The notes beneath the pieces are model-generated. The model was not told where the DNA came from and made no database searches. It saw only the letters and a program-made list of their open reading frames with translations. The position numbers were made by a program, and so were the translations under genes. Shown here one piece after another: positions 14,595-37,365 of a stretch of DNA of 64,000 bases (positions are counted from its first letter, which is position 1; each line of letters begins with the position of its first letter). The stretch spans positions 17,360,001 to 17,424,000 of the forward strand of contig OX597823.1 of assembly GCA_951406725.2 (NCBI GenBank), read 5' to 3'. Origin of the DNA: Octopus vulgaris. Its lineage: Eukaryota.

Positions 14595-15007
14595 ATAAAA
14601 TAAGGGCAAAAGAAAAAAATTCTAATGCCAAATAGTCGGATATATTTGGAGTACTTAGGTCTGCTCATGACTTAGTGCTTGCTTTTTCCATGGGTATGAG
14701 TAAGTATTTCATTTATGCCTTACGTGTTTATCGCTGAGGAGGAGAAAATTATTATGAATTAACTCTGAAATTGGGACCAATACGGTAATAACGGAATTTT
14801 TTAAAAATTTCTATTTGCTTCTTTTGAGACACGTGTTAATAGTGATAAATTATAATTGGTTATTGACAATTTGTCTATTTTCGGCATATTTCGCATTAGA
14901 ATTTTTTTCTTTTGCCCTTATTTTATAAGTTATTTATAAATTTAACCTTTTAAAGGTATTTTTTTATATGCTGGCCATTGATAACATTTTTTTTGAAAAA
15001 TTTTATC

Positions 15008-15062: not shown

Positions 15063-15069
<7 letters not shown>

Positions 15070-15228
15070 TTCGAGACAAAACCACTATTTTGCAAAACAA
15101 ACAAGGAAAGACTTAATCAATACATAAAATTTTAATAGAAAGTATTTACTTTCTATTAAAATTTTATGTATTGATTAAGTCTTTCCTTGTTTGTTTTGCA
15201 AAATAGTGGTTTTGCCTCGAATTAATAT
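15063..15228. mobile_element. near-perfect hairpin element in (TA)n
   Basis: ~82-bp inverted arms with one mismatch and a 2-nt loop at 15145-15146. Confidence 0.75.
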
Positions 15229-25264: not shown

Positions 25265-25300
25265 CTTTCTGTTGAAGAGCGTAGGCTCGAAACGTAAAAG
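25265..25300 (+). ncRNA. minimal hammerhead motif, A6U variant (Penelope-type)
   Basis: CTTT-CTGTTGA-A-GAGC-gtag-GCTC-GAAA-CG-TA-AAAG: 4-bp stem I, 4-bp stem II, palindromic ACGT stem III, GUA triplet. Confidence 0.65.
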
Positions 25301-30944: not shown

Positions 30945-31350
30945 ATGATTACTATTATCATTGTTTTATTTCTCAGAGCGCTCGATCTTGTTTGCTCTGA
31001 TAGATTCTGTGAGAGCGGACAGCAGGCTGCTGTCAGAGGTCTCACAGGGTCTCTTTCCGCACATTATAAGGTTTGATACTTGGTTGTTTATTATCGTGGG
31101 AGACATTCAACTTCCAAGTGTCAATCTTAAAATCCTAGCTGTCCCTAGCAGCGCAGTTTTTTGGGGGCTTGTTCTGCTCTCATGTAAATTCCGATTTCTC
31201 TGACATACATCTCGAACTTGGTTGTTAGTGTTCCGAGTGCCCCTATTGCTAGAATGTGGACTGTGAGGACACTCTCCTCACAGTCCACATTCTAGCAATT
31301 TCGTCTTATAGTAGTCTGTACTTTTCAATGTTTTCTAGTTCTTTGTCACT
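30945..31350 (-). mobile_element. R4/Dong-clade RLE C-terminus and 3' UTR
   Basis: Minus strand DKELENIEKYRLL*DEIARMWTVRRV...IGALGTLTTKFEMYVREIGI...KTALLGTARILRLTLGS*, ending in an AAT-like tail. Confidence 0.9.
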
Positions 31351-31356
31351 TGGTTA

Positions 31357-31515
31357 ATATTTATAGGATTGAGGTAACTCCACCAGAAGATATAGAAGCA
31401 AAAAAACCTGTGGAAGACACACGAGATGTCGAAATATCGTTCACTTGATGACAGTTGCACTCTTCTTTTTTTGCTTCTATATCTTCTGGAGGAGGTTCCT
31501 CAATTCTATAAATAT
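31357..31515. mobile_element. fold-back element with hammerhead in its loop
   Basis: ~50-bp imperfect inverted arms 31357-31406 and 31466-31515, next to (ATC)/(ATT) tracts. Confidence 0.75.
31405..31441 (+). ncRNA. minimal hammerhead motif, A6U variant
   Basis: AAC-CTGTGGA-A-GACA-cacgaga-TGTC-GAAA-TA-TC-GTT: 3-bp stem I, 4-bp stem II, palindromic ATAT stem III, AUC triplet. Confidence 0.6.
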
Positions 31516-31529
31516 CATCATCATCACCA

Positions 31530-31570
<41 letters not shown>

Positions 31571-37079: not shown

Positions 37080-37365
37080 AACGTAAAGTATACTAGCCAT
37101 CTCAATATGGCTAACCACTAAGGGTGGGTGTTACTGTAGCTTTTAGCCCAGGAATCATCGTCTCCAGCTGGCTTTAGGCACACTTTCTGTGCCCTTATGG
37201 TATTTGCTAAGGGAGGTCATCCCTCTCTCGTAAACCTAAGTGACACGAAGGCACAGAAAGTGTGCATAAAGCCAGCTGGAGACGATGATTTCCTGGGGCT
37301 AAAAGCTACAGTAACACCCACCCTTAGTGGTTAGCCATATTGAGATGGCTAGTATACTTTACGTT
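37080..37365. mobile_element. fold-back element in (TA)n
   Basis: ~114-bp near-perfect inverted arms 37080-37193 and 37250-37365. Confidence 0.75.

Follow-up and report, generated by a model that had tools for sequence, protein, structure and literature searches.

The window, the whole 64-kb stretch of octopus DNA that was analysed, contains at 31357..31515 a short fold-back whose arms (31357-31406 and 31466-31515) are 50 bp long, as the sequence-only reading had claimed, and are identical at 46 of 50 positions without a gap. The 159-mer folds at -75.1 kcal/mol (z = -13.3), a stability equalled by none of 200 shuffles. The left boundary drawn earlier stands only in part: the arm is present, while the left piece is 7 nt longer than claimed and reaches 31350. 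From left to right the locus comprises the 3' end of an R4/Dong-type retroelement (endonuclease C-terminus and 3' UTR; 30960..31351, minus strand), which is a neighbour outside the element; an inverted piece of a 151-nt monomer that forms the left arm (31350..31406, minus strand; monomer +34 to +87, counted from the predicted cut); a direct monomer piece (31405..31515, plus strand), which starts within stem I of a hammerhead motif and runs through it to the second preferred 3' end of the repeat family, E2 (+80/82); and a (CAT)n(ATT)n microsatellite (31516..31570, plus strand), the usual target type of the family. In the window copy, therefore, an inverted piece that runs from +87 back to +34 is joined to a direct one (stem I to E2), and the arms exist because the two pieces overlap. 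The right arm (31466..31515, plus strand) covers approximately the stretch from one preferred 3' end to the other, i.e. the Penelope-type "tail". Other near-perfect fold-backs of the window lie at 394-676, 15063-15228 and 37080-37365 (arms of 137, 82 and 70 nt, respectively).

The direct piece carries a minimal type I hammerhead motif (31405..31441, plus strand; predicted cut after 31438), which was read from the sequence and found by a descriptor scan. Stem I consists of AAC (31405-07) and GTT (31439-41), C3 is at 31408 and C17 at 31438. The core is CTGTGGA (C3 U4 G5 U6 G7 G8 A9) followed by an extra A, stem II is GACA/TGTC with a 7-nt loop, and GAAA and the palindrome ATAT complete the motif; the A6U core, the extra A and the palindromic stem III that had been claimed can thus be read directly. 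The descriptor scan gave three matches in the window, at 31408, 25269 and 14734. The second is another U6-core minimal hammerhead (25265..25300, plus strand) with the palindrome ACGT, which shares core and stem II with the 3'-terminal hammerhead of an autonomous Neptune-like element and belongs to a different family; its alleged likeness to the 31408 motif is borne out for the U6 core and the extra A, the stems being different, as had also been said. The match at 14734 has a canonical CTGAGGA...GAAA, a long weak stem II and no palindrome, and is probably due to chance. A heterodimer of the 31408 and 25269 hammerheads was considered and rejected, their palindromes (ATAT vs ACGT) allowing at most 3 of 4 pairs at a distance of 6 kb. 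Rfam returned no hammerhead family among 25 matches at 31300-31520, nor any hammerhead among the best 150 of 229 matches in the window; its miRNA matches reflect hairpins and microsatellites only. Stem I is 3 bp in the window copy and 5 bp in the family (TGAAC/GTTCA), the hammerhead fold of the window copy lies 11.4 kcal/mol above the best fold, and no partner copy was found within the 64-kb window. The window copy is probably inert because its stem I is shortened and it has no partner; that it still undergoes slow, assisted cleavage is unlikely.

A genome search for copies and their boundaries, which the sequence-only reading had asked for, was run with the 159-mer in the 2.8-Gb assembly and gave 762 candidates, 40 of which were scored. 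Most of the scored matches have query positions 49-159 in common and other pieces around them. The 159-bp fold-back is not conserved as a unit, contrary to what had been supposed: arm length and inner junction vary between copies, and the conserved unit is a 151-nt monomer (145-157 nt) arranged head-to-tail as hammerhead, tail of ~80 nt, linker and next hammerhead. The exact pattern occurs in at least 103 copies, and in at least 156 if pair 10.2/11.2 is left free (both lower bounds); reversed controls gave 0, and the window motif is therefore not a chance occurrence. Three subfamilies (A, B and C) can be distinguished, each 89-93% identical internally. One array (L031, G000:C1:33626165-33629314) holds ~21 monomers at 151-nt spacing, all with a U4A core, and is a satellite-like amplification of a degenerate copy. 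Single family copies decay like neutral DNA. Near-identical words were also met in sequencing runs labelled with seven organism codes. At two further loci (L036 and L045) a near-identical insertion together with its flanks lies on two contigs, suggesting a segmental duplication. The monomer has no ORF for a reverse transcriptase (RT) or a GIY-YIG endonuclease, hence the family does not belong to the autonomous Penelope-like elements (PLEs), and neither motif search nor tblastn found PLE coding sequence adjoining any fetched family copy. A coding remnant in the monomer was rejected, since the frame from stem II, 31-38 aa long in subfamilies A and B, measures only 10 aa in subfamily C.

Conservation of the hammerhead was assessed in 61 copies selected independently of the core pattern, by an ungapped scan that tolerated up to 9 mismatches over 41 nt and therefore misses more decayed copies. 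Loss of stem II pairing or of GAAA in homologues, which would speak against a hammerhead, was looked for, and both proved to be kept: stem II pairs are retained in 53-58 and stem I pairs in 48-59 of the 61 copies. Position 6 is U in 58 of the 61 and in 98 of 100 listed copies, the other core letters being canonical, so that the family departs from the canonical core C3 U4 G5 A6 N7 G8 A9 at this letter. G12 is present in 56, A13 in 60, A14 in 60, the extra A in 61, U15.2 in 61 and A16.2 in 59 of the 61 copies; GAA, A15.1-U16.1, H17, the extra nucleotide and the palindromic stem III are those of a minimal type I hammerhead of the PLE type. N7 varies (G in 36, U in 22 and A in 3 copies). Pair 10.2/11.2, scored by eye in the 100 listed copies, is G-C in 50, A-U in 42, G-U in 2 and unpaired in 6, a compensatory change that counts as one event. 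Paired cells make up 92% as against 11-35% in slid controls, a comparison of 21 hand-picked copies that gives modest support only. Between subfamilies A and C, 4 of the 41 hammerhead positions differ, none of them in the core, whereas 88 of 124 positions are identical elsewhere (P ~0.003); the differences amount to one compensatory A-U/G-C pair and two loop letters. These comparisons indicate that the hammerhead is under constraint at the family level. A canonical-core ancestor with the same stem I was sought as well, and rejected: of five genome matches, four are family copies. The fifth (L032, G000:C2:62086035-62086075) is a lone diverged A6 hammerhead with the stem I and stem III of the family, a 5-bp stem II, unrelated flanks and no ORF; it is possibly an older relative.

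A6 is counted among the invariant letters of the hammerhead core. Genome-wide counts with one pattern in which only position 6 was varied gave 28,354 matches for U, 9,933 for A and 1,323 for C or G (controls: 39, 31 and 36, respectively). As a consequence, some three quarters of the counted motifs would escape a search based on CUGANGA. The first 100 U6 matches are without exception members of the 25269-type family, and each of the four letters occurs at N7 among them. The 25269-type motif ends an RT + GIY-YIG element with a Neptune-type CxxxxCxxC linker, for which 24,075 candidates were found (113 scored at >=92% identity, open frames to ~1,200 aa). A hammerhead lies within 1.5 kb in 23 of 30 loci of this element, with U6 and a (TA)n end in every case. 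Among 4,601 RNA reads (three runs), the positions of its hammerhead at which variants exceed 15% are N7, H17, loop II and a CpG, none of them in the core. At loci L169-L198 this Neptune-like PLE is seen to be young and very abundant; its 3' region is long and rich in C/T, and several of its open frames are longer than 1,000 aa. A further A6 hammerhead family (L067, G000:C1:6292000-6300000; L068, C1:15338000-15346000) is arranged as pairs of head-to-head copies around a short palindrome, flanked by (TA)n.

Whether a U6 hammerhead cuts is a separate matter from its conservation. The U6 hammerheads could be catalytically dead relics, kept by descent only or as a fold bound by a PLE protein, and we regard this as a serious contender that falls just short of being probable. 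Changes of the CUGA turn lead to low activity (PMC9901934), core changes in this region lower activity also in PMC3088659, and from this mutagenesis literature one would predict slow cleavage at best for U6. Minimal PLE hammerheads are weak even as dimers. The PLE hammerhead of Anolis needs protein, and its cleavage is dispensable for PLE insertion in vitro (PMC11167929). Cut ends were found neither among the 5' ends of the DNA copies nor among the RNA reads; the latter come from fragmented RNA-seq (three raw-read runs chosen by species label), in which the absence of read ends at the predicted cut site is a weak test of cleavage. Against dead relics stand the core letters, which are fixed while N7, H17 and loop II vary, and the natural A6C hammerhead, which is slow in Mg2+ yet cleaves well in Mn2+ (PMC3088659, PMC7151607). 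Slow, assisted cleavage by the family hammerhead could well occur, although we stop short of calling it likely. The dead-relic explanation touches catalysis only and is compatible with mobility by means of a PLE, to which the remaining observations refer.

If the hammerheads did cut multimers into 151-nt monomers and thereby gave abundant circular RNA, the family would be a non-LTR retrozyme proper. It consists of head-to-tail monomers with one type I hammerhead each, the monomer is circularly permuted, pieces exceed one unit and there is the ~21-unit array; moreover, retrozymes are reported as PLE derivatives (bioRxiv 10.64898/2026.07.22.740005). As described by Cervera and De la Pena (2020, PMC7229834) and by Li et al. 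(bioRxiv 2026), animal non-LTR retrozymes are, like the family, short and non-coding and coexist with PLEs. However, the reported ones are canonical, 170-400 nt long, highly self-paired and abundant (PMC7229834), whereas the 151-nt family is smaller, has a minimal non-canonical core and consists mostly of dispersed inserts of 1-1.5 units with inversions. Abundant, well-paired circles, a retrozyme trait in the same source, were not seen for the family by standard RNA-seq and folding: the monomer circle folds no better than shuffles, and family reads number 88-114 per ~12 million, on both strands, with 68-86% of them continuing into unlike flanks; standard libraries, however, can lose 151-nt circles. 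The array, moreover, has the U4A core. A joint that "goes back 143" was rejected as evidence for circles, being the normal head-to-tail continuation that is present in the DNA copies too. We consider a retrozyme proper improbable.

The insertions themselves are informative about how the family moves. We mapped 95 loci, chosen by hammerhead patterns only (17 of them via sister-subfamily or A6 patterns), one exact duplicate having been dropped and one probable segmental duplicate kept; piece ends are BLAST ends, good to a few nt. Head-to-head pieces occur at 42 loci and a single orientation at 53, tail-to-tail pieces at none. The outer 3' ends (n = 137) cluster at +30-47 (E1, 64 ends) and at +75-85 (E2, 34 ends), two windows that take up 19% of the monomer yet hold 98 of the 137 ends; E1 and E2 are ~40 nt apart (tail of ~40-45 nt). 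An AAT-type trinucleotide repeat lies within 30 nt of 114 of the 137 outer 3' ends. The 39 two-piece head-to-head loci have 39 different inner junctions and inverted pieces of 20-230 nt; a length of at least one monomer (151 nt) is reached by 55 of 142 pieces. Among the 23 head-to-head loci with both ends classed, which leaves aside 19 with at least one end elsewhere, 20 pair E1 with E2, three are E1/E1 and none is E2/E2 (P = 0.0003). The 5' ends are scattered, with no excess at the cut site (14 of 142 at +1-10, 13 at +11-20). The mapped loci thus show a microsatellite target, 5'-truncated inverted copies, partial tandems and two alternative 3' ends with the tail between them. PLEs are described as having inverted 5'-truncated copies, a 30-40 bp tail and a microsatellite bias (PMC8557442), and a Poseidon PLE protein is reported to cleave ATT and to extend both strands, with reverse transcription beginning at two sites inside the RNA that mark off the tail (PMC11167929); matching these traits, the insertion signature of the family is read as PLE-type.

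We propose that on a multimeric or circular family RNA the RT starts at E1 when it uses one target strand and at E2 when it uses the other, that the two cDNAs would then join at variable points, and that their overlap would give the fold-back. The family hammerhead may act either as a slow, dimer- and protein-dependent cutter or as a protein-binding fold. For the window, two loci (L006 and L026) show the undeleted form: their inner structure is as in the window copy, and the inverted piece, which contains the equivalent of 31350..31406, continues via a second hammerhead to E1 and a microsatellite. About 100 nt present there are absent from the window copy, the left end of which (+87) is atypical for the family, and the R4/Dong 3' fragment starts in their place; no remainder of the 151-nt element was found beyond the R4 end in the window. 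Probably a deletion removed these left ~100 nt, among them the second hammerhead and the E1 end, and would thereby have joined what is left of the copy to the R4 relic within one microsatellite. The window copy is an ordinary decayed insertion. Taken as a whole, the fold-back is with good probability a truncated, damaged member of a non-coding family of 151-nt repeats, which have an A6U minimal hammerhead motif and are likely copied in trans by a PLE RT/GIY-YIG endonuclease.

The abutment on the R4 relic that had been described is real, the R4 sequence meeting the left end through a 2-nt microhomology. It might suggest that the family is an R4/Dong-dependent SINE-like element and the window copy a template-switch chimera, generated when the R4 RT jumped onto hammerhead RNA; this is unlikely. 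Both elements target (AAT)n, the hammerhead element (sense) is joined directly to the 5' break of R4, and by eye a similar direct join exists at L006. The contact is not family-wide, however: only three of the 250 flanks have R4 coding sequence no more than 2 nt away, and where R4-type coding sequence lies within 300 nt (33 of 250 flanks) a microsatellite stands between in 25 of 33. A head-to-head arrangement in which each piece stops at a fixed internal site is characteristic of PLEs, and no 3' end in common with R4 was seen. A shared target followed by a later deletion is the simplest reading of the contact. Within the R4 relic, at 31245-31299, a local 25-bp fold-back replaces codons that are present in 11 other copies of its family.

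That the 159-bp fold-back is itself mobile, as a MITE-like element with 50-bp terminal inverted repeats around a hammerhead, can practically be dismissed, for in spite of its strong arms and several genome matches that span query 1-159 at 77-82%, the inner junctions differ in all 39 loci compared, 53 of 95 loci have a single orientation, the monomer also occurs in a tandem array, and neither fixed terminal inverted repeats nor a fixed target duplication was found.

The PLE-type explanation calls for a helper. The most likely candidate would be the Poseidon-like PLE of the genome (3,191 candidates), whose copies include inverted pieces, show 3' end clusters at about +50-60 and +81-91 and have AT-rich, sometimes (AAT)n, flanks; the hammerhead pattern matched in 11 of 30 of its loci, all A6. 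The Neptune-like element is a poor helper candidate because it targets (TA)n. Several observations weigh against the explanation as a whole: no autonomous element with sequence common to the monomer was found, R4/Dong elements use the same target (the 33 of 250 flanks above), there is neither a 5'-end peak nor a set of RNA read ends at the cut site, and Poseidon-like copies end in AT-rich DNA that is only sometimes (AAT)n. The monomer has no significant similarity to the tails of the Poseidon-like and Neptune-like elements, the two PLEs compared (p 0.13-1.0), and a likeness of the Poseidon-like tail to the E2 region of the monomer was rejected as not significant. The Poseidon-like loci (L234-L263, e.g. 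G000:C18:71798485-71801640) have a tRNA-like segment, often with (AAT)n, in the 3' UTR between the ORF stop and the A6 hammerhead; ARAGORN called no tRNA in this 3' UTR segment. Truncated copies resemble tRNA-headed SINEs.

The family can be compared with known systems on several points. In common with the metazoan PLE hammerheads of Cervera and De la Pena (2014, PMC4209133) it has type I topology, a short stem I, an extra nucleotide between 9 and 10.1, G10.1-C11.1 and a palindromic 15.2/16.2 without loop III; the Nematostella PLE hammerhead has the AAC/GUU stem I and the UAU-C end of the window motif. The difference is A6, which all 56 representatives of Fig. S3 in that paper have (CUGANGAH), whereas the 151-nt family has U6 and no ORF. 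The Anolis Poseidon PLE (Frangieh et al. 2024, PMC11167929) likewise has two internal start sites that define the tail and an ATT-rich target, extends both strands, and carries a protein-assisted hammerhead that insertion does not need. It is autonomous with a 30-40 bp tail, while the octopus family is non-coding with a tail of ~40-45 nt, and the pairing of E1 with E2 in head-to-head inserts is a feature of the family that we did not find described for Anolis Poseidon in the portions of PMC11167929 covered. The natural A6C hammerhead of phage Bcep176 (Perreault 2011, PMC3088659; Naghdi 2020, PMC7151607) also has a pyrimidine at position 6; it is, as reported there, a rare single case with C, whereas here U occurs in tens of thousands of copies and at least two element families. 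The 151-nt family behaves like a non-autonomous element that depends on PLEs and is intermediate between a fragment of a PLE pLTR and a non-LTR retrozyme.

Ribozymes are not mentioned, by a term search, in the main text of the octopus repeat annotation (PMC13282606). Our literature search found no natural A6U hammerhead; its reach did not extend to Lunse et al. 2016, a work on small PLE hammerhead variants, and Arkhipova et al. 2017, either of which may list one.

More tentatively, we suggest that A6U is a working core that arose twice in this lineage, in the Neptune-like element and in the 151-nt hitchhiker, that it became the commonest core in the genome and that it cuts only as a dimer on a PLE protein, the 151-nt RNA being a minimal substrate for PLEs, with inserts that preserve a record of the RT using one start site on each target strand; all of this together is possible, and we do not hold it to be the likelier outcome. 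Should U6 dimers cut, the consensus of the hammerhead core would have to be broadened; should they not, a PLE of great success retains a non-cutting hammerhead fold, which bears on the role of PLE hammerheads. As a 151-nt non-coding element with two defined start sites, the family would offer a very small substrate for studies of PLE insertion, and its head-to-head E1 + E2 pattern a genomic readout of the PLE insertion mechanism.
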